Shown piece by piece: positions 5,127-17,564 of a stretch of 17,564 nt of DNA. Position 1 is the first letter of the stretch. Each line of letters opens with the position of its first letter. A program made the position numbers and the translations under genes. Origin of the DNA: a virus (taxonomy: Duplodnaviria > Heunggongvirae > Uroviricota > Caudoviricetes); the IMG/VR virus record IMGVR_UViG_646206259_000006. One strand, given 5' to 3'. Under the pieces are notes generated by a model that saw nothing but the letters and a program-made list of their open reading frames with translations, made no database searches and was not told where the DNA came from.

Positions 5127-7478
5127 ATGCGAAACATTGATCTTATCCGTCAGGTTATCAGTGCGTCTGAAAACAACTGGCCTCATGTGCTGGGCTGCCT
5201 GAACATAAATGTCCCTGACTCTCCGCGCCGTCATGCTCCCTGCCCTGCATGTGGGGGCAAAGACCGATTCCGGTTCGATGACAACGGGCGCGGTAGCTTC
5301 ATCTGTAATCAGTGCGGCGCTGGTGATGGGCTGGATTTAATTAAACGCGTAAATAACTGCGACACAACAGAGGCGGCGCTGCTTGCCGCTGATGTTCTGG
5401 GTATTGATTACCGGACAACGGAAACACCAGAAGCCACCAGCCAGAAACGGGAACAACTGGAAACCGAGCGCCAGCGACGCGAACAGGAGCGCCTGAAAAG
5501 GGCAGAGAAGGACGAACAACAAAGACGGGATACGTTTTCCCGTCAGTTTGATGACATGCGCAGAAAGGCTGTAAACGGCAAATCTGATTATCTGGTTGCG
5601 AAAGGGGTAGGTGATTTTACATTCCCTGTGTTGCCCGATGGATCTCTGTTGCTGGCGCTGGTGGATAAATCCGGCGCAGTTACAGCAGCACAGACTATTA
5701 CCTCACATGGTGAAAAAAGACTCCTGACAGGTTCAGCAAAGCGAGGGGCATATCACGCCATAAACGCACAGAAACGACCTCACAGCATCATAATTGCTGA
5801 GGGGGTGGCTACCGCCCTGTCGTGCCATTTAATTCGCCCTGACGCAATGACAGTGGCAGCAATCGACGCTGGCAACCTGTTGCCAGTAGCGGAAGTCATG
5901 CGCAGAACATATCCACAGGCACAAATCATCATTGCCGCAGATAACGATCACCAGCAAGGAAACTCCGAAAGTGGAGGGATCAACACGGGGAAAGATGCCG
6001 CAGAGAGGGCCGCTATTTCCGTAGCTGGCTGGGTGTCTCTGCCACCGACTGACTATAAAGCCGACTGGAACGACTATCACCAACAACACGGGCTGGCGGC
6101 AGCCACAGCAGCATTTAAAGATTCGATGTACCAGCCACGGGGGAAAGGGGCGCAGGTGAAAAATCACAAACAGTCAGTCGGGGCGCTGAATGAGATCAGT
6201 TCTGGCGAGGTGTTAAGCGATGATGAAATTGCTGTCCTCGAAGAAATCAACCGGACGTTTACGCATGTCACCATCGGCGGGAAACACAAGGTGGTGTCGC
6301 TAAAGCCTTCTCAAACCGGCGGTGTATCGCACGTTTTCGAGGATTTATCACAATTTCAGCATTATTTTCATCATAAACCGAGAGTCGCCAGAAAGCTGGC
6401 GGGATCGGCGTGGCTGTCATGGAGTGGGAAGAACTACAAGCCAGGAGGCGTAGGATTTTATCCAGTACCAGACAAATGCCCTGACGATGTTTTTAATCTG
6501 TATGAGGGGCTGGCACTGGAACCAATTGAAGGAGATTGCACGGTATACCTTAATCACCTGTTGCAGGTTGTCTGTGCCGGTAATGAAGAGGCATACCAAT
6601 ATCTTATCCAGTGGATGGCGCACATTATCCAAAAGCCTGATGAAAAACCGTCCGTGGCAATCGTGATGAAATCTGTCCCGGGCACAGGGAAAGGCACAAC
6701 GGTTAAACCGCTGCTGCAAATACTGGGGCAGTACGCCGCCCACATTAACGGGGCGGGACATATTTCAGGGCGCTTCAATTCAATACTTGCTAACAAGCTA
6801 CTGGTATTTGCTGACGAAGTGACGATCCACAAGCCGTCTGAAGCTGACAGACTTAAAGCGATTATTAGCGAACCGACGTTTAACCTTGAGCGCAAGGGAA
6901 TTGATGCTGAACCAATGCCGAATTTTGCCCGGTTGATATTTGCCAGTAACAGCACACAGGTATTACAGGCAGGGATAAGAGAGCGCCGCTATCTCGTGCT
7001 TGAGCCATCTCCTGAAAAAGCACAGAGCCGGGAGTATTTTGATCGGCTGTACAGTTGGCTTAATGATGGCGGTGCCGCAAAGTTGCTTTGGCATCTTAAA
7101 GGGGTGGATCTCTCAGGTTTTGACCCTCAACGAGCGCCACAGACCGATGCCTTACGTGAAGAAATCTTGCTGGGGCTGTCTGGCGTTGAATTGTTTCTTT
7201 ATGGCGAGCTAATCAATGAACCTCCGTTTAATGGCGAAGTCCGTTTGTTTGCAAAGGATATGGTTAGTCGGTTTGTAGCGTGGTCGCTTGAGCGTGGGGA
7301 AAAGCTTAAAGAACCAGCTGCCAGATCACTACTGGGTAAATCACTTGCACAAATGGGGCTGGTGAAGCATGGAAGACCAGACCGAGGGAATGGCGTGTTC
7401 TACGAACTACCAGAGGTCGGAGTTCTACAGGCTGCGTTTGCCCGTCTGATCGGTATGGGGGGTTATGATGTTTTTTAA
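5127..7478 (+). CDS. P4-alpha-like primase-helicase (783 aa)
   Basis: N-terminal CxxC…CxxC zinc-binding motif (CPACGG…CNQCGAG). TOPRIM-like segment (IIIAEGVATALS, IIIAADNDHQ). C-terminal P-loop (VPGTGKGT) and DExx-like box (LLVFADEV). Iteron cluster immediately downstream. Confidence 0.85.
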   Translation: MRNIDLIRQVISASENNWPHVLGCLNINVPDSPRRHAPCPACGGKDRFRFDDNGRGSFICNQCGAGDGLDLIKRVNNCDTTEAALLAADVLGIDYRTTETPEATSQKREQLETERQRREQERLKRAEKDEQQRRDTFSRQFDDMRRKAVNGKSDYLVAKGVGDFTFPVLPDGSLLLALVDKSGAVTAAQTITSHGEKRLLTGSAKRGAYHAINAQKRPHSIIIAEGVATALSCHLIRPDAMTVAAIDAGNLLPVAEVMRRTYPQAQIIIAADNDHQQGNSESGGINTGKDAAERAAISVAGWVSLPPTDYKADWNDYHQQHGLAAATAAFKDSMYQPRGKGAQVKNHKQSVGALNEISSGEVLSDDEIAVLEEINRTFTHVTIGGKHKVVSLKPSQTGGVSHVFEDLSQFQHYFHHKPRVARKLAGSAWLSWSGKNYKPGGVGFYPVPDKCPDDVFNLYEGLALEPIEGDCTVYLNHLLQVVCAGNEEAYQYLIQWMAHIIQKPDEKPSVAIVMKSVPGTGKGTTVKPLLQILGQYAAHINGAGHISGRFNSILANKLLVFADEVTIHKPSEADRLKAIISEPTFNLERKGIDAEPMPNFARLIFASNSTQVLQAGIRERRYLVLEPSPEKAQSREYFDRLYSWLNDGGAAKLLWHLKGVDLSGFDPQRAPQTDALREEILLGLSGVELFLYGELINEPPFNGEVRLFAKDMVSRFVAWSLERGEKLKEPAARSLLGKSLAQMGLVKHGRPDRGNGVFYELPEVGVLQAAFARLIGMGGYDVF

Positions 7479-7507
7479 TATAGTCTTTTTACAAGAAGAT
7501 CGTTTTT

Positions 7508-7611
7508 ACCTGTACCACCTATACCACTTTGCTAATTCAGCATTAAAAACAATGCGTTATAGTGGTACAGGTCAATATCTTACCTATACCAGACCTGTAC
7601 CACCTATACCA
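7508..7611. repeat. Iteron cluster 1 (putative origin): 19-bp direct repeat ACCTGTACCACCTATACCA at 7508-7526 and 7593-7611 with an inverted TGGTACAGGT copy between them
   Basis: Direct reading. Lies immediately 3' of the primase-helicase gene in an AT-rich context, the usual position of the ori in P4/PICI-type elements. Confidence 0.7.
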
Positions 7612-8617: not shown

Positions 8618-8721
8618 TGGTACAGGTCTGTACAGGTGGGGAGAGGTCATTTTTACCCACCTGTACCACCTGCAGGCCGCGCCACACAAGGGTTTGTGAC
8701 ATGGTGGTACAGGTGGTACAG
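8618..8721. repeat. Iteron cluster 2 (crr-like): at least four copies of the GGTACAGG/CCTGTACC core in both orientations
   Basis: Direct reading: TGGTACAGGT 8618-8627, CTGTACAGGTGG 8628-8639, CCACCTGTACCACC 8657-8670, GGTGGTACAGGTGGTACAG 8703-8721. Same core as cluster 1. Confidence 0.65.
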
Positions 8722-9216: not shown

Positions 9217-9389
9217 TGGCTATTTCAGTAAAGCCAGTATTGATAAGTGAGAAGCAAATGGAAGCGATAAAGAAAATTCAGGAGGAGCAGCGTAAAAAAT
9301 CAGAGGTAGGAGTTGCGCCAACGATCCACGAAATTGCTCGGGGATTAATGGATAAGGCGCTGGCTTACACTTTAACTGGACGTGGGTAA
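9217..9389 (+). CDS. Small hypothetical protein (57 aa), possibly ribbon-helix-helix-like DNA-binding
   Basis: AAGGGGGG RBS 5 nt upstream. Perfect -10 TATAAT at 9176-9181. The ORF-track call from 9087 is likely an over-extension. The RHH guess is from the beta-strand-then-helix pattern only. Confidence 0.45.
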
Positions 9390-9393
9390 ATTT

Positions 9394-10737
9394 ATGGCTA
9401 CGTGGCAACAGGGTATTAATTCTGGTGGTTTTCTGGCTGGCATCGGTGCGCAAAATGAGAATGCGCCAAAGGCAAGCGACATTAACGCAACGCTTGGTCT
9501 GATCCGCGAAAACAATGAACTGGCTCGCTCAGGTGCAAATAACGTTGCTCTGACAGGTCTTCGTGGTCTGGCTGGAGTTGCTGACATTTATAAGCAGCAG
9601 CAACAGCAGGAACGTAAAGCGGCATTCCAGAAAGGTTATGCAGATGCTTATGCGTCCGGTGACAGGGAGCAGATGCGTAATCTTATTACAGCATTCCCAG
9701 AAGAGTTTGAGGAAGTCCGTAAAGGGATGAGTTATGTCGATGATGCTCAAAGGGATGATTATGGCAATCTGGCGCTCAAAGCACAGGTAGCCTCATCGCT
9801 TGGTCAGGGCGCATTTGGCAGGTTCATGATGGATAATGAGCAGGAGATGCGTCGTTTAGGTATCCCTCCAGAAACTATTGCTGAAATGCAGGTTAATGAC
9901 CCGCAGGGCTTCCAGCATTTCGCAGGTAATCTGGCGCTGTTTTCTCTCGGTCATGAGAAGTATTTCGATATCAAAGATCAAATGGAAGGTCGTCGACTTG
10001 AGCAAGGGCGACTGGATGAAAGTATGCGTCAGGCTGACATGGAGAACGCGAGAGGATGGGCAAATATCCAGAACGCTCAACTAGACAGGGCTCAGCGAGC
10101 ACAAATTCACTCAGATGAGATGGGATTGAAGCTAATGGAGCTGGGGCAAAAAGGTAAGCCGTCAGCAGACTTAATTAAGGGATTAAATTCTGACATTACC
10201 AATTTTGGCAAAAATTATAACTCTGTCAGAGCGGCGGCAAACTCTCTGCAAGCCCTTAGCAAGGTAAATACTGGCGCTGCCCAACTTGGGATTATCTTCA
10301 ACTACATGAAATCTCTTGACCCGCAGTCAGTCGTTCGTGAAGGCGAACAGGTTCAGGTAATGCGGTCTGATGGCATATGGGGACAAATCAAAGGATACAT
10401 AGACCAGCTTAATGCTGGAAACGGCCTGTCGCAGGAGGCAAAGGATAACATTGTTAACGCCGCAAAAATCAACGCCAATGCTATGGGGCAGCAGTTTAAC
10501 CAGCAGGTTGACGAGTATCTCGATACATATGGAGAAACTATTCCTCAGGGGCTAAGAAAAAGCCTTGAAAGAAGGAAAGCGAAGCTATTTGACGATGTTT
10601 CCGGGCAGCCTACATCACAGGCTGGCACTGGACAGGCAAAAGCGGCAACCGGAGGAATATCAGAAGGCGCAACGGCAACCAACCCTAAAACTGGTCAGAA
10701 AATCATTTACAGGAACGGAAAATGGCAGCAAATGTAA
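9394..10737 (+). CDS. Hypothetical large protein (447 aa from ATG 9394; alternative GTG start 9382), Q/N/A-rich and predicted largely helical
   Basis: Long ORF with coding-like composition. No catalytic motif seen (no P-loop, HNH or PD-(D/E)xK). Low-complexity poly-Q stretch (QQQQQ). Flavour of phage internal/ejection or scaffold-type proteins; function unknown. Confidence 0.6.
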   Translation: MATWQQGINSGGFLAGIGAQNENAPKASDINATLGLIRENNELARSGANNVALTGLRGLAGVADIYKQQQQQERKAAFQKGYADAYASGDREQMRNLITAFPEEFEEVRKGMSYVDDAQRDDYGNLALKAQVASSLGQGAFGRFMMDNEQEMRRLGIPPETIAEMQVNDPQGFQHFAGNLALFSLGHEKYFDIKDQMEGRRLEQGRLDESMRQADMENARGWANIQNAQLDRAQRAQIHSDEMGLKLMELGQKGKPSADLIKGLNSDITNFGKNYNSVRAAANSLQALSKVNTGAAQLGIIFNYMKSLDPQSVVREGEQVQVMRSDGIWGQIKGYIDQLNAGNGLSQEAKDNIVNAAKINANAMGQQFNQQVDEYLDTYGETIPQGLRKSLERRKAKLFDDVSGQPTSQAGTGQAKAATGGISEGATATNPKTGQKIIYRNGKWQQM

Positions 10738-12839
10738 TCTTACCGGAAGGTTTTGTGCTCGATGAACAACCTGATAACTCACAGTTTCCTGATAGTTCAC
10801 AGCTTCCTGATGGTTTTGTGCTTGATGCCCAACCAGAACAGCAGCAATCACCTTTGGTTTCACCAGAGGAAAATTCCAGACAGGAAAATGTTGTTAATAA
10901 TGCTAACGGTTTCGACCGTTTTATGTATGGCGTTCTCAGTGGATTGATGGATGTTGGTAAAGGTGTTGGCCTGTTTCAGGATATGACACCAGAAGAGCAA
11001 GCCGCAATTCAGTCTCTACAGCAGAAGTTAGCGGCAAAACCATCAACCGCACAAGATGTTGGTGAGTTCGTTGGACAAGCAGCGCCATTTGTTAGTGGTG
11101 GTGGGATTATTTCTCAGGTTCCCAAAGGGGCGGCAAGACTGGCTGCCGCCGTAGGGCTTGGTGCTGGAGAAGGGGCTATTGTAGCCAATGGAACAAATAG
11201 CGATGTTGCTTCCGGCGCTGCTATTGGCGCTGTGGCTGGCCCTGTAGCCGAACTTGCTGGCCCTGCAATTAATAAAATAGCTGGGAAATTAACCAAGAAG
11301 AATGTTTCTTCGATTCCAGATATTGAGGGGATTACTCCTGCCGAAGAGAAAATTCGTAAGTTATCTGCACAAGGCAACCCAAATCTTGCCTCTTCGCTTG
11401 AAGGGCTAGATCTAAAACCTCAGAAAGAAATTGTTGAGGCTGCAAATAGGCTTCATGTTGATTCAGTTCTTCCTTCTCATTTATCAGGAAATGAGCAATA
11501 CCAAGCTGTAGAGCAAGCCCTAAAGTCACGGACAGGATCAGCGTTAAAAGCTCAAGAAGATAAAGCAATAAGCGAATTAGCCTCTAGTGCTGACAAGATA
11601 ATCGATGATGTTGCTGGTGCGCCAGATGCGTTAGCTATGAGCGAAAAATATATTTATCAGATAAATAGTAGAATGGAAGCACTAAAAAACCGTAGTGATC
11701 AGTTATATAAACGTGTTGATTCCGCTCTATCACCAAGAACAAAAGTCGAAGCAAATAACACAAGCACTATGCTGGAAAAAATCGCTGATGATTTAGGAGG
11801 GTGGGATAATCTTGACCCAATAGAAAAGCGAGTTTTTACAGCAATAAACCCCGGCCCAGATAGCATCCTAACGTATGCAAATTTAAACAGGCAAAGGCGT
11901 TTAGTTGGTGATGCCCTAAATAAAAAGCAGGGGCCATACAAAGATGCTGATAAAGAAGCGCTATCAAGACTATATGGAGCTTTAGCTGAAGACCAAAAAT
12001 CTGTCTTATCCAATACTGGATACTTGCGAGATTTCGAAGTCGCACAACGCCTTGTAGCTATGAGAAAAAACTTAGAAAGGCAAATGGTAAATCTTCGCGG
12101 GAAAACACTTAATGGGGATATAGCGTATAAAGTAACGAATTCTCTTCAATCTATGGCAAAAGGTGATGCGAGAGGGTTTCGTGAGATTATGCAAAATACT
12201 CCATCAAGAACATTGCGAAGGGAGCTAGTAGGAACAGCATTAAGAGATATGCTTTCCTCTGGGAAGCGTGGGGCCGACTTTAATCCATCTGGCTTTGCAG
12301 ATTGGTGGCAAAACTTGCAACACAGTGGACAGCTAAAGACTTTGGCTGAACATTTGCCAAAAGAAACAATGAGCGGACTATATGATGTATACAAAGTTGC
12401 CAGAGCAATAAAAAATGCTAAAGCGCATGAAATATCTACTGGTAAGCTGAATGAGTTTGTAAACAGATTTAATCGGGTAACAGCTCCATACGAACTAGCA
12501 GCAAAACACATTCAAAAAATAGGCACGATGGTAGGCGCTCATTTTGGATCGCTTGGAGCCATTGCTGGGGCTGATATTGGAGCAAGATTGGCGAGTAAAG
12601 CTCGATTAGCTGGTGGAGCAGGGGCGGCTGATGCTGCGGATAAATTAATTGCCTCGCCAGCCTTCCAGAGCGCAGTAAAAAATCTACACGGAAAAGCGCC
12701 TGGGCACATTGTTGATTCACGTATCAGGCGCTCCCCTCAATGGAAGAGTTTTTTTAACTCTCTTCCTGAACAGGAAAAACGGACCATCGCCAGACTGGGC
12801 ATCATTACTTGGCTATCTAATGATCCAGATAATGACTAG
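10722..12839 (+). CDS. Hypothetical large protein (705 aa) with N-terminal tandem peptide repeat, Gly/Ala-rich segments and a long helical middle
   Basis: Overlaps the upstream gene by 16 nt, so co-transcribed. N-terminal repeat PEGFVLDEQP / PDGFVLDAQP. GxxxG-rich segment (GLGAGEGAIVANG…AIGAVAGPVAELAGPA) and C-terminal Gly/Ala hydrophobic stretch (GAHFGSLGAIAGADIGARLA). No enzymatic motif recognised. Confidence 0.6.
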   Translation: MAANVILPEGFVLDEQPDNSQFPDSSQLPDGFVLDAQPEQQQSPLVSPEENSRQENVVNNANGFDRFMYGVLSGLMDVGKGVGLFQDMTPEEQAAIQSLQQKLAAKPSTAQDVGEFVGQAAPFVSGGGIISQVPKGAARLAAAVGLGAGEGAIVANGTNSDVASGAAIGAVAGPVAELAGPAINKIAGKLTKKNVSSIPDIEGITPAEEKIRKLSAQGNPNLASSLEGLDLKPQKEIVEAANRLHVDSVLPSHLSGNEQYQAVEQALKSRTGSALKAQEDKAISELASSADKIIDDVAGAPDALAMSEKYIYQINSRMEALKNRSDQLYKRVDSALSPRTKVEANNTSTMLEKIADDLGGWDNLDPIEKRVFTAINPGPDSILTYANLNRQRRLVGDALNKKQGPYKDADKEALSRLYGALAEDQKSVLSNTGYLRDFEVAQRLVAMRKNLERQMVNLRGKTLNGDIAYKVTNSLQSMAKGDARGFREIMQNTPSRTLRRELVGTALRDMLSSGKRGADFNPSGFADWWQNLQHSGQLKTLAEHLPKETMSGLYDVYKVARAIKNAKAHEISTGKLNEFVNRFNRVTAPYELAAKHIQKIGTMVGAHFGSLGAIAGADIGARLASKARLAGGAGAADAADKLIASPAFQSAVKNLHGKAPGHIVDSRIRRSPQWKSFFNSLPEQEKRTIARLGIITWLSNDPDND

Positions 12840-12858
12840 TGAATGGCCACGGATGGCC

Positions 12859-13284
12859 TCAATCTTTATTCTTTGAAATAGAGTCATTGATCTTTTCGAA
12901 ACACCAATGAAATCCACAAAAGAGAGCTACACCAATATAACAATACAAAACTATCAACCACCTTTCAGTGTCCGAAGGGTAAAAAACATCAATTACATAA
13001 GCAACACCAATTGGTATTAATGCTAGTAATAACATCGACACAGGACGTACAAACTTCTGAACTATATCAATTTTATAGAACCACAAGGCGGTATGTTTAA
13101 TGATATAAGTAAAGATGGCTGCGCCAATAATGGCAAAAAACACCATCGATAAAGTCGGGTATAACTTTGCGACAATTAAACCCAACAAAATAATTATAAC
13201 TGCCTGCCCCCTCACACCAACCCTCCCTTTAGCTTTGTTTAGAATGGCAATCATCATATATCCAAGACATGGCATTTGGTACAT
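12859..13284 (-). CDS. Small integral membrane protein (141 aa, about 4 predicted TM helices); function unknown
   Basis: Four hydrophobic stretches of about 18-20 aa (AVIIILLGLIVAKL, MVFFAIIGAAIFTYII, SMLLLALIPIGVAYVI, LIVLYCYIGVALFCGF). Convergent with the 705-aa gene, separated by 19 bp containing a small GGCCA-cgga-TGGCC hairpin. Confidence 0.5.
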   Translation of the reverse strand: MYQMPCLGYMMIAILNKAKGRVGVRGQAVIIILLGLIVAKLYPTLSMVFFAIIGAAIFTYIIKHTALWFYKIDIVQKFVRPVSMLLLALIPIGVAYVIDVFYPSDTERWLIVLYCYIGVALFCGFHWCFEKINDSISKNKD

Positions 13285-13375
13285 AGCTTGGGTCGGGATT
13301 TCAAATCCGCTCCCCGTTGATGGGGCCGTTACAGTACGCGCATATCCGCTTTATGTGAAACAGGAAGATTTTTCT

Positions 13376-13476
13376 GATATCACTGCCACAGCAAAACACC
13401 AATTTCGTGACCAGTACGCGCGCGAGGGGTATCAGTTGCAAAAATTTTGCAACCACGTCCGACCAGTACGCACACG
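13376..13476. repeat. Non-coding repeat block: two copies of an alternating-CG motif (CCAGTACGCGCGCG / CCAGTACGCACACG) flanking the inverted repeat TTGCAAAA-A-TTTTGCAA (13436-13452)
   Basis: Direct reading. A related roughly 55-bp sequence recurs at 16285-16338 and a shorter copy at 13688-13711. Confidence 0.5.
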
Positions 13477-13687
13477 ATGGCGGGGGATACCATGAAACTG
13501 TTCTCTACACGAGACAGAGTGGTGGTGATGTGTTGATTATCGGCGTATATGCGCACAGGACGCGCTATGACGATGTTTTATGCGGGTACACCAATCACAT
13601 GTATCTGGTGTGATAAATCGCGTTACATGACCTCTCATGTTGTGCTGGTGGTTATCACGACTTTCTGAATCTGGCCTTTGCCTGATA

Positions 13688-13711
13688 TTTTGCGACAAGT
13701 ACGCGCGCGTA
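13688..13711. repeat. Third copy of the CG-alternating motif, containing the perfect palindrome TACGCGCGCGTA
   Basis: Direct reading: TTTGCGACAAGTACGCGCGCGTAGC. Confidence 0.45.
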
Positions 13712-14165
13712 GCATCGAAATTATCGGATGGCGTATGCTGCTGGCAATATGAAGACCGATAGTATTAACCGAAAAGCGAAAGAGCTTCTCGATAACGGCA
13801 AGATCGCGGCAAGGGTTGCTGAATTTGAACAGATGTAAGGAATGGAACCAGAGAGGCGCTGGCGGCGAAAAAACGCCACTACCAGCGGATAAATGTGCCA
13901 ATCTTTTAGTTGGAAAAACAGCATAGAAGGCTACCATGATATGTAAAGATTGCTCAAAAAGTTATTATCAACGTCTAATTTCATTAAAAATGCTCCTTAT
14001 TGCTGTTAAAAATCAAAGAAATCATTTAAAAACCGTTCAACACCCCCCATCTGTCTTCAAAAAGATTTGTGTTGGTTAGTGACTAGTTACCTTTTATATG
14101 TAAATATATCCACAAGGGAAGTGGTGAAAATTTCGACTATTTAACCATAATCAAAGGAGGTGAAC

Positions 14166-14648
14166 ATGTCGAATACATCTGCACATGCCCTCTTGAAAGA
14201 TATCTGGGGCGATAGGAAATTCCCGGTTGATCCAGTATGGATTGCCAATGAGTTAGGGTTGGATGTTGTTGAAACCACGCTTGATGATGATGTTTCAGGC
14301 GCATTGCTGAAAGAGCCAGAACAAGATCCAGTAATCATACTCAATCGTAATGATAGTAACGTGCGCAAACGATTTACGTGTGCGCATGAGTTAGGGCATT
14401 ACGTCAAACGAACTGAGAACGGTCAGCCACTTGAATATGAGTTTGTTGATTACCGCGGAAAACTGGCAAGCCAAGGTGTAGACAGCGAAGAAATATTCGC
14501 CAATAACTTTGCAGCATGTCTTCTCATGCCAGAAAAAGAGGTTCGACGCCTCAACAATGCAGGATATGCACCAGTAATGATGGCTTCCTATTTTGGTGTA
14601 TCCGATGATGCTATACGTTATCGCCTAAAGAATTTAGGGCTTCGATGA
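14166..14648 (+). CDS. ImmA/IrrE-family (DUF955-type) zinc metallopeptidase (160 aa)
   Basis: AGGAGG RBS (14155-14160). HEXXH zinc-binding motif (CAHELGHY) in the context typical of ImmA/IrrE peptidases. No HTH domain detected in the protein itself. Confidence 0.7.
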   Translation: MSNTSAHALLKDIWGDRKFPVDPVWIANELGLDVVETTLDDDVSGALLKEPEQDPVIILNRNDSNVRKRFTCAHELGHYVKRTENGQPLEYEFVDYRGKLASQGVDSEEIFANNFAACLLMPEKEVRRLNNAGYAPVMMASYFGVSDDAIRYRLKNLGLR

Positions 14649-14651
14649 GTA

Positions 14652-15029
14652 ATGACGTCTAGATCTTACGCTATATCTGAAAAACTAAAGCAAGCGGCAA
14701 GACAAGCCAGAGGTGAACCAGCCTCTGGCTCATCTCCATCAGCAAAAACCCTCACACATCTAAATGATAAGGATCCAGCCAAAGCCCATCAGCGTGCAAA
14801 AACAAAAGATTTAAAAACAGACACAAAACTGAAAAAAATGTTTGCTCGGTGGTTTATCGGCATTCTGATAGGCCAGCTATTAGTTATGAATGGGATTTTT
14901 GTCCTTATTGGAGCAAAACTGCTCCATTTTAGTGATTTCGTTATAAACCTATTTATGGGGGGAACCCTCGCTGAAGTCTTTGGCATTGTTTTAGTGATGG
15001 CACGCTACCTGTTCTCCAAGCACGTCTAA
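14652..15029 (+). CDS. Small membrane protein (125 aa): basic hydrophilic N-terminus plus two C-terminal TM helices; coupled to the peptidase gene
   Basis: ATG 3 nt after the peptidase stop. Hydrophobic stretches FIGILIGQLLVMNGIFVLIGAKLL and LFMGGTLAEVFGIVLVMARYLF. Confidence 0.5.
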   Translation: MTSRSYAISEKLKQAARQARGEPASGSSPSAKTLTHLNDKDPAKAHQRAKTKDLKTDTKLKKMFARWFIGILIGQLLVMNGIFVLIGAKLLHFSDFVINLFMGGTLAEVFGIVLVMARYLFSKHV

Positions 15030-15045
15030 AAATCAAAATATAGGG

Positions 15046-15489
15046 CTACATTCTTAGAGCCACTGATAACTTTTCAGCATTGCTTCCCTGACGCTTCCAC
15101 GCGCTGTAAATGTCTTTATCCCATGCTTTACCAGCTTTTGTTTGATAGCCTGCTTCATTGAGCCGTTCCGCTATCACACGCCCATTATCAAATCCCTGTT
15201 GGATGGTATCGGCAATGATCTTTATAACTGCCGTTTCGTTATATGGCTTTGGTGGGATGTTCGGCTTTCCGGCAATAAGCGACGCAGCGGCTTTTTCCAT
15301 GCGCTCCACCAGCCCAAGCATTCGTGAATCAATAGACTTTTCCGGCTGTCCCAGCTTCATGCGAATCGCATCAACAAGCCAGGAGGTTTTATCCCCTCCA
15401 GAAGCGAGAACAGACCGATTAAACTCATCCTGCAATTCAGATGGGATGCGGAACGCGATCAGATTAGATTTGCTCATTGCAAAGACCAT
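15046..15489 (-). CDS. Putative DNA-binding regulator (147 aa): ribbon-helix-helix-like N-terminus with a serine-recombinase 'Recombinase'-domain-like C-terminal segment
   Basis: N-terminus NLIAFRIPSELQDEF…SWLVDAIRMKL resembles the RHH fold (Arc/MetJ/CopG). C-terminus IAERLNEAGYQTKAGKAWDKDIYSAWKRQ resembles the LNxxGxxTxxGxxW motif of the recombinase DNA-binding domain. Start could be ATG 15489 or 15477; neither has a clear SD. Confidence 0.5.
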   Translation of the reverse strand: MVFAMSKSNLIAFRIPSELQDEFNRSVLASGGDKTSWLVDAIRMKLGQPEKSIDSRMLGLVERMEKAAASLIAGKPNIPPKPYNETAVIKIIADTIQQGFDNGRVIAERLNEAGYQTKAGKAWDKDIYSAWKRQGSNAEKLSVALRM

Positions 15490-15590
15490 ATCAGTGAGTA
15501 ATATCCATACAGTATACCACTGTATAACACTGTTATACGCTCAAATATCAGCCAGAAAATAACGGACCAATCACAAAGCTATCGCTGTGT

Positions 15591-15735
15591 TGTTGGTTCA
15601 GAGCTGGGCTGTGTTGGTTCAAAATGAGTTGATGTTGGTTCAACATTTCAGAAAAAACACAATAAAAACAACGATCTTTACAAATTAAACCAACTGAACC
15701 AACTGAACCAACACCTTTTTGCTTATCTATATAAT
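15591..15735. promoter_or_regulatory. Divergent promoter/operator region: three direct TGTTGGTTCA repeats at 21-bp phasing (15591, 15612, 15633), two tandem inverted copies TGAACCAAC (15695-15712), and a perfect -10 TATAAT (15730-15735) for the plus-strand gene
   Basis: Direct reading. The inverted copies sit where the -35 of the PerC-like gene promoter would be. A related half-site TGTTGGTTAG occurs near 14071-14080 upstream of the peptidase gene. Confidence 0.55.
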
Positions 15736-15748
15736 CTGAGAGGCAGAA

Positions 15749-16036
15749 ATGATAAGGGACAGGAAAGCTGAAGAGCTGGAGTCAAAAGGGCTATACCGGA
15801 GAGCTGCCGCACGATGGGCAGAAGTCATGATGCTGGCAGATGGCGATAAAGAACGTGAACATGCAGCAAACAGACGCTCTGAATGTATCCGTAAGGCGGC
15901 ACGCCCACCAGCAACTACAGACAGATTCGGAGATTTAAGACAGGCAGTTAAGCGGACTCATTCGGCTCTTGGTATGGATGAGGAAGCGAGAGGGTACTTC
16001 AGGCGTTATCGCGATAAAGATTGCCAGAGACAGTAA
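15749..16036 (+). CDS. PerC-family transcriptional regulator-like protein (95 aa)
   Basis: N-terminal AEELESKGLYRRAAARWAEVM matches the conserved PerC/Pch N-terminus as remembered. GAGAGG RBS. Confidence 0.55.
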   Translation: MIRDRKAEELESKGLYRRAAARWAEVMMLADGDKEREHAANRRSECIRKAARPPATTDRFGDLRQAVKRTHSALGMDEEARGYFRRYRDKDCQRQ

Positions 16037-16284
16037 TGCTCTCTCTCTGTTTTGGCAAATTCCCCCTCACTTTGAAGGGATCGGAGCTATAAAAATGGTG
16101 TTATCCGGCTTCCTGCATTGTAGGTTTTCGAAAAAATCAATGGGTTAGGTCATCGTGCAAATTTGCACTCTGCCAGCCAACGCAATTTCTCGTTGGCGAA
16201 AATATCAGGTATTTACTGAACGAACGGTCTACCAGTCTATTCAGTTACCAGTTGCACATGGCTGTTTCATGTGAGAACGGAGGT

Positions 16285-16338
16285 TTTTTCGGACATCACT
16301 ATTGGTTACAGCAATTTCACGAGCAATACGCGCGCGCA
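16285..16338. repeat. Fourth copy of the CG-alternating motif family (ATCACT…CAATTTCACGAGCAATACGCGCGCGCAGG), related to 13376-13428
   Basis: Alignment by eye: shared blocks ATCACT, ACAGCAA, CAATTTC and TACGCGCGCG in the same order. Confidence 0.45.
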
Positions 16339-16553
16339 GGACAACAAGCCTGAACATAGTTACACACCTCGATCGTGAGGGATGTAGACAATGGCTTCTG
16401 GCCAAAGCACCCGAAAAAAACCGTGTACATAAGGGTGTACATAATCAAAAACCGCATTAGAAATAAACCAGCTTCAATGCGGCATTGAAGCCAATACTCT
16501 ACAAACAGATCCAAATAACTCGTAACGCCAATTCTTCCTTTTCAGCCTTCACA

Positions 16554-16586
16554 AATGCCGCCCACTCAAACAGAGCGGCATTTTTC
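16554..16586 (+). terminator. Rho-independent terminator (8-bp stem AATGCCGC/GCGGCATT, 13-nt loop, T5 run)
   Basis: Direct reading of 16554-16586. Confidence 0.5.
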
Positions 16587-16675
16587 CTCCCCGCAACATT
16601 CAATTCTGTTTTGCGTGCCTGCTCCAGATTTTGCGATGTTTTTTTGCCCAGCGCAGTGAGAACGTGAGATACTCA

Positions 16676-16696
16676 CAACTGTATATAAACACAGTT
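16676..16696. promoter_or_regulatory. LexA (SOS) box-like palindrome AACTG-N11-CAGTT upstream of dinD
   Basis: AACTGGTATATAAACACAGTT read directly. Canonical LexA boxes are CTG-N10-CAG, and this site is one base longer between the CTG and CAG half-sites. Confidence 0.5.
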
Positions 16697-16739
16697 GTAA
16701 ACTTACTTTCCTTGCAATCGATATCATATGGAGTGGGCA

Positions 16740-17564
16740 ATGAACGAACATCATCAACCTTTTGAAGAAATACGGCATTATGGCACTGAAGGGCAAGAAT
16801 TTTGGTCAGCGAGAGAATTGGCACCGTTACTGGATTATCGGGACTGGCGCAATTTTCAAAAGGTACTGGCCCGCGCGACTCAAGCGTGCGAAGCCAGCAA
16901 TCAAGCTGCATCTGACCATTTCGTTGAAACCACCAAAATGGTTGTATTAGGTTCAGGGGCTCAACGAGAACTTGAAGATGTTCATCTCTCCCGCTATGCC
17001 TGTTACCTGGTAGTACAAAACGGCGACCCTGCGAAACCGGTTATTGCGGCAGGGCAAACTTATTTTGCTATCCAGACCCGACGGCAGGAGCTGGCTGACG
17101 ATGAAGCTTTCAGGCAACTTCGTGAAGACGAAAAGCGTCTTTTTCTGAGAAATGAGTTGAAAGAACATAACAAACAATTAGTTGAGGCAGCGCAGCAAGC
17201 TGGGGTAGCGACAGCTATCGATTTCGCCATATTTCAGAATCATGGTTACCGGGGACTGTATGGTGGATTAGATCAGAAAGCCATCCATCAGCGGAAGGGG
17301 CTGAAAAAGAGTCAGAAGATCCTGGATCATATGGGTTCAACAGAACTGGCGGCTAATCTCTTTCGAGCTACCCAAACAGAAGAAAAACTCAAGCGGGATG
17401 GCGTGAATTCAAAACAGCAAGCTAATACCACACACTTTGACGTGGGTCGCAAGGTGAGGCAAACCATTCAGGAACTTGGCGGAACCATGCCTGAGGAGTT
17501 GCCGACCCCGCAGGTCAGCATCAAGCAGTTGGAAAACAGTGTAAAAATTACAGAGAAGAAATAG
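16740..17564 (+). CDS. dinD: DNA-damage-inducible protein D (274 aa); alternative upstream ATG at 16728
   Basis: Protein beginning MNEHHQPFEEIRHYGTEGQEFWSARELAPLLDYRDW matches the E. coli DinD sequence as remembered. SOS-box-like palindrome about 45 bp upstream. Stop codon is the last triplet of the window. Confidence 0.75.
   Translation: MNEHHQPFEEIRHYGTEGQEFWSARELAPLLDYRDWRNFQKVLARATQACEASNQAASDHFVETTKMVVLGSGAQRELEDVHLSRYACYLVVQNGDPAKPVIAAGQTYFAIQTRRQELADDEAFRQLREDEKRLFLRNELKEHNKQLVEAAQQAGVATAIDFAIFQNHGYRGLYGGLDQKAIHQRKGLKKSQKILDHMGSTELAANLFRATQTEEKLKRDGVNSKQQANTTHFDVGRKVRQTIQELGGTMPEELPTPQVSIKQLENSVKITEKK

Follow-up and report, generated by a model that had tools for sequence, protein, structure and literature searches.

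The window, by which we mean the whole 17,564-nucleotide stretch analysed here (IMG/VR record IMGVR_UViG_646206259_000006), carries a minus-strand gene whose product combines a predicted ribbon-helix-helix (RHH) head, a central helix and a C-terminal HTH domain. The gene (called the RHH-HTH gene below), the parts of its product and the elements upstream of it were located as follows.

15046–15477, minus strand: coding sequence of the RHH-HTH protein (143 aa, stop codon included), from the open reading frame, the PGAP coordinates and the conserved MSKS start.
15343–15477, minus strand: putative N-terminal RHH domain, residues 1–45, from RHH-fold Pfam and PDB matches in relatives, AF2 helices and the columns that split the operator classes.
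15271–15333, minus strand: central helix, residues 49–69 (SRMLGLVERMEKAAASLIAG), an AF2 helix with an invariant core.
15049–15252, minus strand: C-terminal HTH domain, residues 76–143, including LNEAGYQTKAGKAW and the invariant helix DKDIYSAWKR.
15511–15519, minus strand: putative extended −10 element, TGgTATACT, read from the sequence and lying directly downstream of the operator.
15522–15538, no strand assigned: putative operator of class A, GTATAAC-N3-GTTATAC, a perfect inverted repeat with a 10-bp period between its two units.

An open reading frame was called on the minus strand at 15046–15489, the extent given to the gene by the original prediction. The frame was right, but the start was not: in an alignment of more than 40 orthologues the conserved start was the second ATG, at 15477 (MSKSNL...). 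Since orthologues from more than 40 species shared an MSKS or MNKS beginning and the upstream ATG (15489) was not conserved in frame among those aligned, the start was set at 15477, giving 143 aa. PGAP annotation of strain SF-166 had the same coordinates (15046–15477). The gene was present in 361 of 5426 complete E. coli genomes (~7%), always annotated as “hypothetical protein”, and was found across the Enterobacterales. Homologous proteins formed 371 clusters at 90% identity, and 65 representatives at 50% identity were obtained among 1.8 billion proteins, nearly all of them from Enterobacterales; the family is narrow but well populated. Full-length distant relatives (P0132, P0158, P0161, P0168 and P0185; 31–46% identity) kept the three-part architecture. 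A tblastn search of deposited phage genomes gave no match.

The 2.1 kb around the gene matched the chromosomes of many E. coli isolates from humans at 100% identity. In SF-166 the window corresponded to a ~17.5-kb island between yicC and dinD, starting with genes for a tyrosine integrase, an AlpA-like regulator, an antirepressor, an Ash-family protein and a primase-helicase, and ending with phage DNA-ejection homologues, ImmA, two hypothetical genes and PerC. EcCIMP1, whose helper is the P22-like phage Kapi1, contains integrase, AlpA, antirepressor, Ash, primase, “DNA transfer” proteins and PerC (PMC11773190). This matching gene content places the island among the EcCIMP1-like phage-inducible chromosomal islands (PICIs). 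A sibling element with the same core genes from int to perC was found in NZ_CP148430.1, a circular sequence of 12,152 bp that had been submitted as a plasmid of E. coli. Its copy of the RHH-HTH gene was 93% identical, and it was without ImmA, the membrane protein and intact ejection genes. Because the RHH-HTH gene was kept in this minimal circular sibling, it is a core gene of the island. The circular record also suggests that such islands can be maintained, or picked up, in episomal form. In E. coli, Salmonella, Klebsiella and Serratia the gene was located at the inward-reading end of the element. In the circular sibling, an 8.7-kb Moellerella plasmid and the distant relatives it was the sole or nearly sole gene on its strand, diverging from the start of a long gene series and converging on its end.

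Several other features of the island were recorded. Two large genes at 9394–12839 resembled phage DNA-ejection/injection proteins; PGAP named one of them “phage DNA ejection protein”, and a Pectobacterium relative matched Phage_P22_gp16. They are unusual cargo for a satellite and fit the “DNA transfer” genes of EcCIMP1. The ~880 bp at 13285–14160 were without a convincing open reading frame and contained five copies of CAGTACGC(G/A)C, with longer repeats of 20–23 nt at 13332–13713; an Rfam scan of 12800–16800 gave nothing credible. Direct repeats of GTGTACATAA were seen at the perC-dinD junction (16423–16444) and, in the circular sibling, at 9270–9290 and 9470–9540, just upstream of int. These repeats probably represent the attachment site's arm-type sites for integrase binding.

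Residues 76–143 were the most conserved part of the protein in the alignment and, when modelled alone, folded into four helices (pLDDT 95.3, pTM 0.83). The best Pfam match was HTH_62 (PF20552; E 0.029; 14.8 bits for the whole protein and 16.8 bits for the domain alone, cut-off 27), a family for which a literature search found no papers. It was followed by Recombinase (PF07508; E 0.065; 13.9 bits, cut-off 21.1), matched over profile positions 3–42 of 102. Both recurred below threshold in the C-terminal domains of relatives, HTH_62 in 17 of 22 (15–17 bits against 27) and Recombinase in 16 of 22 (13.9–16 bits against 21.1). Neither a search of PDB sequences with the C-terminal family profile nor Foldseek with the C-terminal model gave anything significant. 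The best Foldseek TM-score, 0.52 at 21% identity, was to a serine integrase complex, and the structural neighbours of the model are generic HTH domains, not specifically recombinases.

The domain was also compared by hhalign with an alignment of the matching segment of ten phage serine integrases, including that of TP901-1. The match covered 46 columns with a probability of 62–70% (P 4–8e-5). The reversed alignment scored 1.7%, forty column shuffles at most 3.1%, and the RHH part against the integrase alignment 0.4%. With controls this clean, the signature LNEAGYQTKAGKAW (residues 106–119) reflects a real, distant kinship to the first HTH of the recombinase domain. A serine-recombinase-type segment at the C-terminus, as originally predicted, was thus upheld by signature and profile-profile match, though below threshold in Pfam. 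So was the lack of a catalytic domain, as there was no Pfam Resolvase match. A complete Recombinase domain (~100 positions) above the gathering score was also absent, only ~40% being matched, and neither a zinc-ribbon nor a coiled-coil followed the recombinase-like part, the protein ending 25 residues past the HTH.

For the N-terminal half the evidence was of another kind. A β-strand at about residues 5–11 (NLIAFRI), helix A at 13–25, a G27-G28-D29 turn and helix B at 30–42 could be laid out, and this order of elements within ~45 residues fits the RHH superfamily; in distant relatives the turn read G-M-S or G-T-S. The AF2 monomer gave the two helices (13–25 and 30–42) at low confidence, with pLDDT 38–58 over the N-terminus, and no strand; a missing strand is usual in a monomer model of an obligate dimer. 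A fold search with the full-length model returned meaningless matches only, because of this low-confidence N-terminus, and the whole-protein family profile found nothing significant among PDB sequences. The window protein itself had no Pfam RHH match. Among 19 relatives, six matched RHH_1 (best E 1.7e-4), and the Pfam matches of the remaining relatives included NikA-like, RelB, TacA1 and Arc, all RHH folds. The family profile aligned end to end with the CopG-family structure 6xrw (E 0.08), with Mnt (1mnt) over residues 7–46 (E 0.73), and also with VapB26. A stronger-scoring match to L7Ae covered residues 1–26 only and was taken as chance. Between head and HTH domain, the central helix had invariant positions at R52, L56, E58–E61 and A63–A65 in the orthologue alignment. 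By analogy with Mnt, it may be an oligomerisation helix that joins two dimers on two operator units.

Read on the gene strand, the upstream region of the window contained GTATAAC-AGT-GTTATAC (15538–15522) and then TGgTATACT (15519–15511). All intact orthologous loci had a 17-bp element 57–63 nt before the start codon, and in an alignment of 42 loci from different species an extended −10 of the form TGnTAtAAT started 1–2 nt after it. A simple consensus promoter scan did not list the 15511–15519 element, because no −35 is present. The 17-bp element, a putative operator, occurred in two classes with the same 10-bp period: the inverted GTATAAC/GTTATAC (class A, 23 loci) and the direct GTCTTAC-N3-GTCTTAC (class B, 19 loci).

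The operator class varied together with the predicted β-strand. Class A was always accompanied by S(N/T/Y)L(V/I)AF at residues 4–9 and class B by S(L/I)SVTF, without exception in the 23 and 19 loci, respectively; these loci are not all independent, and the co-variation may reflect one or few evolutionary events. When 22 class A and 18 class B proteins were aligned, only columns 5, 6, 8 and 16 of ~143 split the classes, and columns 5, 6 and 8 fall in the predicted strand. Protein identity reached 76% between operator classes and fell to 57% within one class. The concentration of class-splitting residues in the strand is as predicted for direct read-out by a β-ribbon. When the proteins are aligned on FR(V/I)P, residues 6, 8 and 10 presumably correspond to the base-contacting Q9, N11 and R13 of Arc. 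The RHH assignment leans mainly on this operator DNA, profile matches giving it weak support.

The N-terminus had originally been likened to an RHH domain; the matches of relatives and the operator/strand co-variation favoured this, and the window protein itself stayed below any curated RHH threshold. The profile searches and structure prediction proposed as a check likewise gave a confident HTH model and an integrase match by hhalign, with no curated threshold reached and low confidence at the N-terminus. The two-domain architecture as such, a predicted RHH head plus a recombinase-type HTH and no catalytic domain, was confirmed.

Within the window a second copy of the operator was not found, even at three mismatches or as half-sites, and none was seen near alpA, int, the primase operon or the perC-dinD junction. 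A search of viral contigs gave 21 matches, seven of them beside orthologues; by our own estimate the others are about the chance frequency for a 16-base pattern. Separately, the palindrome TGTATAAC-N3-GTTATACA occurred at least six times without mismatch in one 106-kb contig (IMGVR_UViG_3300009788_000091; L085, L088 and L090), which had no orthologue of the RHH-HTH gene; these copies may be an unrelated repeat system. When a DNA motif common to all loci was sought as a candidate target of the C-terminal domain, only the operators and a Chi-like octamer emerged. About half of the orthologues (e.g. L006, L010, L014 and L032–L042) had the Chi octamer (GCTGGTGG or its complement) in the 5′ untranslated region or the sequence upstream; the window copy of the gene did not.

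From the operator/strand co-variation and the hhalign match to the recombinase domain, the protein is very probably a DNA-binding regulator. On balance we favour, as the probable reading, that this core gene of an EcCIMP1-like PICI encodes a DNA-binding regulator under negative autoregulation. The RHH head would dimerise and insert its β-ribbon into the major groove of the bipartite 17-bp operator, whose two 7-bp units lie one helical turn apart. The operator covers the −35 and spacer positions of the extended −10 promoter of the gene. When occupied, probably by two dimers that the central helix joins as in Mnt, it would keep RNA polymerase out. The three- or four-helix HTH at the C-terminus may serve a second conserved DNA target or a protein partner; being the most conserved part, it likely carries the main role of the protein. 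Dimer or tetramer formation, repression and any regulon beyond the gene's own promoter are elements that we infer. The co-variation, together with an operator at the gene's own promoter only, makes negative autoregulation the best-supported activity. A toxin-antitoxin antitoxin was also considered and rejected, the gene being monocistronic and convergent with its neighbours.

A broader role, as master repressor of the island, had been suggested for the protein. Repressor genes of temperate elements usually diverge from long gene series and stand alone on their strand. The RHH-HTH gene, nearly alone on its strand and divergent from the long gene series, occupies this typical position, so a wider silencing role is plausible. 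The recognisable operator, however, occurs only at the gene's own promoter; it lies ~170 bp from the likely perC promoter and nowhere else in the window, and the master-repressor reading is therefore given a low probability.

The region beyond the operator resembled a replication origin. At 15592–15712, three copies of GTTGGTTCA (21-bp spacing), an AT-rich stretch and three inverted copies (9-bp spacing) were found, the last repeat overlapping the likely −35 of perC. In about 20 species a GTTGGTTCA array with an AT-rich core was located 80–350 bp upstream of the gene, and in other elements different iteron-like arrays occupied the same relative position. The conserved feature is thus the position of the gene beside an iteron cluster, whatever its sequence. 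The GTTGGTTCA array was considered as the operator of the RHH-HTH protein and rejected on four grounds. It occurred with both β-strand classes; two proteins with 94% identity (L025 and L026) had different iterons; elsewhere it followed DUF927-type primase genes, even ones without an RHH-HTH gene nearby (L091; Pectobacterium); and the iterons tracked the C-terminal 160 aa of the DUF927-type primase. Over these last 160 residues, GTTGGTTCA-linked primases shared 69–78% identity, against 46–52% for a primase with other iterons. The circular sibling had two GTTGGTTCA-type arrays, one after the primase and one beside the RHH-HTH gene; phage P4 has a comparable pair of ori and crr.

The primase-helicase of the window was of another type, its C-terminal half being DUF5906 and unrelated to the DUF927 type. 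The primase-helicases of the window (5127–7478) and of the circular sibling (L058, 3758–6514) were 85% identical over the first 350 residues (zinc ribbon, TOPRIM) and unrelated past residue 350, where one is DUF5906 and the other DUF927; the difference is a module swap inside one gene. Iterons of the form ACCT(A/G)TACCA, direct and inverted, were found at 7505–7611 and 8618–8721, a short way past the DUF5906 primase-helicase gene and the gene pair that follows it. These clusters probably serve the island as its ori and a crr-like partner. As the resident primase belongs to the DUF5906 type and has arrays of its own, the GTTGGTTCA array of the window is probably an orphaned origin-type cluster.

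Two further readings take this neighbourhood into account, and we regard each as unlikely. We know of no resident repressor for Gram-negative phage-inducible islands. The protein might be this missing repressor or sensor in islands of the EcCIMP1 type, with the RHH head anchored at the operator beside the iteron cluster and the HTH looping or docking. The HTH could engage another site on the DNA, drawing operator and origin into a loop that would couple silencing of the long operon with replication control; alternatively, by analogy with Stl de-repression in staphylococcal islands, it could be a docking surface for an inducer from the helper phage. Gram-negative PICIs have been described as AlpA-activated (PMC11773190).

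The second, equally doubtful, is that the protein is an accessory or copy-control factor of the replication origin, one of its domains binding at or near the origin or to the primase-helicase. RHH proteins such as CopG control plasmid replication, a sibling of the island is known as a 12-kb circular record, and GTTGGTTCA or other iteron-like arrays recur at the same place upstream of the gene. Against it, the iteron sequence follows the C-terminus of the DUF927-type primase and not the RHH-HTH protein, as seen in the pair of 94% identical proteins; the β-strand class is independent of iteron type; and the array next to the gene in the window appears orphaned beside a primase with ACCTRTACCA arrays of its own.

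Proximity to the attachment site would suit an accessory protein of the island-encoded tyrosine integrase that works near att, in a directionality or architectural role. In the circular form perC is the one gene between the RHH-HTH gene and attP/int, the C-terminal domain resembles a DNA-binding module of recombinases, and one source labels a fragment “integrase”. Excision of EcCIMP1, however, has been shown to need AlpA and the integrase (PMC11773190). The operator lies at the gene's own promoter and not at att, and an operator-like site was not found in the perC-dinD junction. We consider this role very unlikely.

The nearby peptidase gene offered another candidate partner. The product of 14166–14648 is a good Peptidase_M78 (ImmA) whose best match in a defence library was CapP. 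The gene lies ~400 bp from the RHH-HTH gene, to which it is convergent, and is followed by a gene for a 125-aa membrane protein (cassette 14166–15029). The convergent stops of the membrane-protein and RHH-HTH genes are 16 bp apart (15029–15046) with no terminator-like hairpin between them, so that read-through antisense transcription is possible. ImmA was absent beside the RHH-HTH gene in 48 of 50 species loci and in the 12-kb sibling. It was adjacent in two of 51 contexts, the window and Pluralibacter (L004), and these had opposite arrangements, as in Pluralibacter ImmA and an unrelated membrane protein were directly upstream, divergent and on the other side of the gene. At most 69 of ~360 gene-bearing E. 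coli genomes also carried the ImmA segment, which was thus missing from at least ~80% of them.

The pair of ImmA and a homologous membrane protein was found elsewhere, in Pectobacterium, Plesiomonas and Pseudoalteromonas (membrane-protein identity 80%, 59% and 47%, respectively), and as a more distant pair (31%) in a fourth genome. The RHH-HTH gene was absent from all four contexts, and there was no HTH partner gene near the cassette. ImmA and the membrane protein thus make a conserved two-gene cargo cassette that may act in defence or abortive infection. The slot that follows the 3′ end of the RHH-HTH gene (~12840–15045; L101–L107) proved to be a variable cargo site, holding this cassette in the window, Abi-family proteins or other genes in other E. 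coli islands, a DprA-like pair in Klebsiella and Abi_2/Abi-family cargo in Serratia. Homology between E. coli islands stopped within the last ~ten codons of the RHH-HTH gene. The separate cassette and the variable slot indicate that ImmA is cargo in a hotspot bounded by the gene and not its dedicated partner.

It had been proposed that the protein is a substrate of this peptidase, and the corresponding reading is of an island master repressor inactivated by cleavage from the adjacent ImmA/IrrE-type peptidase, as in ImmR/ImmA or CapH/CapP. The short distance, the CapP-like match, the divergent pair directly upstream in Pluralibacter and the near-solitary position of the gene on its strand, often seen for repressor genes, all point that way. 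They are outweighed by the rarity of the adjacency among species loci and E. coli genomes and its absence in the sibling, by the homologous membrane-protein gene that always follows ImmA in a pair occurring without the RHH-HTH gene in four genomes, by the convergent genes, which are not co-transcribed, and by the lack of a second operator near alpA, int or the primase operon. To our knowledge, the known substrates of ImmA and CapP are Xre-type HTH proteins. A substrate role thus found no favour, and we hold the whole reading to be highly improbable.

That the gene is a truncated remnant of a large serine recombinase deserves practically no credit. In its favour are only the weak Pfam Recombinase matches, which cover 40 of the 102 positions of the profile. 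Against it, neither the length nor the three-part layout varies among hundreds of clusters and 44 species loci, the gene keeps a conserved promoter and operator of its own, the N-terminal half has no recombinase similarity by hhalign, and flanking recombinase fragments were not found. Conservation of length and architecture in the 371 clusters and the distant relatives therefore contradicts the pseudogene that had been named as the outcome that would overturn the prediction, and by the same conservation the gene is a real one under constraint. The protein, then, is neither a recombinase nor a partner dedicated to the neighbouring ImmA.

The favoured reading, an autoregulated DNA-binding regulator, concerns an uncharacterised core gene of a widespread island type, present in ~7% of complete E. 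coli genomes and in many Enterobacterales. It brings two putative operator classes and, judged from the alignments, a candidate three-residue specificity code in the β-strand. Since the slot directly 3′ of it carries variable cargo (Abi, the ImmA-membrane protein cassette and others), the gene is also a positional marker. If its C-terminal domain senses a helper phage or controls the origin, this would fill a gap in how satellites stay silent.

The protein is probably an RHH regulator carrying a second, recombinase-type HTH, a variation on a known type. Mnt of phage P22, one of its closest parallels, also has an N-terminal RHH head followed by a helix that could join dimers and a short repeated operator overlapping the promoter, with likely autoregulation, and belongs to a mobile element linked to P22-like phages. 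The similarity is marginal, however, the RHH-HTH protein has an extra 65-residue HTH, and the operator sequences are unrelated. The C-terminal domain is best matched in Pfam by HTH_62 (PF20552), a recombinase-like HTH that stands alone, at scores below the 27-bit cut-off. Compared with large serine recombinases (PF07508; TP901-1, Bxb1), it has only the first ~40% of the recombinase domain, and without a resolvase domain, α-E helix, zinc-ribbon and coiled-coil the protein cannot catalyse recombination. Systems pairing a regulator with a metallopeptidase, ImmR/ImmA and CapH/CapP, resemble the locus in having an ImmA/CapP-like enzyme near the gene, but here the two convergent genes do not form a conserved pair, the peptidase has a conserved partner gene of its own, and the head would be RHH instead of Xre-type HTH. 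Stl-type repressors of Gram-positive PICIs (SaPIs) are likewise satellite-encoded and divergent, and they too join a DNA-binding head at the N-terminus to a distinct C-terminal domain; the head of Stl is an HTH and its sites control the excision/replication operon, whereas the recognisable site of the RHH-HTH protein is found only at its own promoter.
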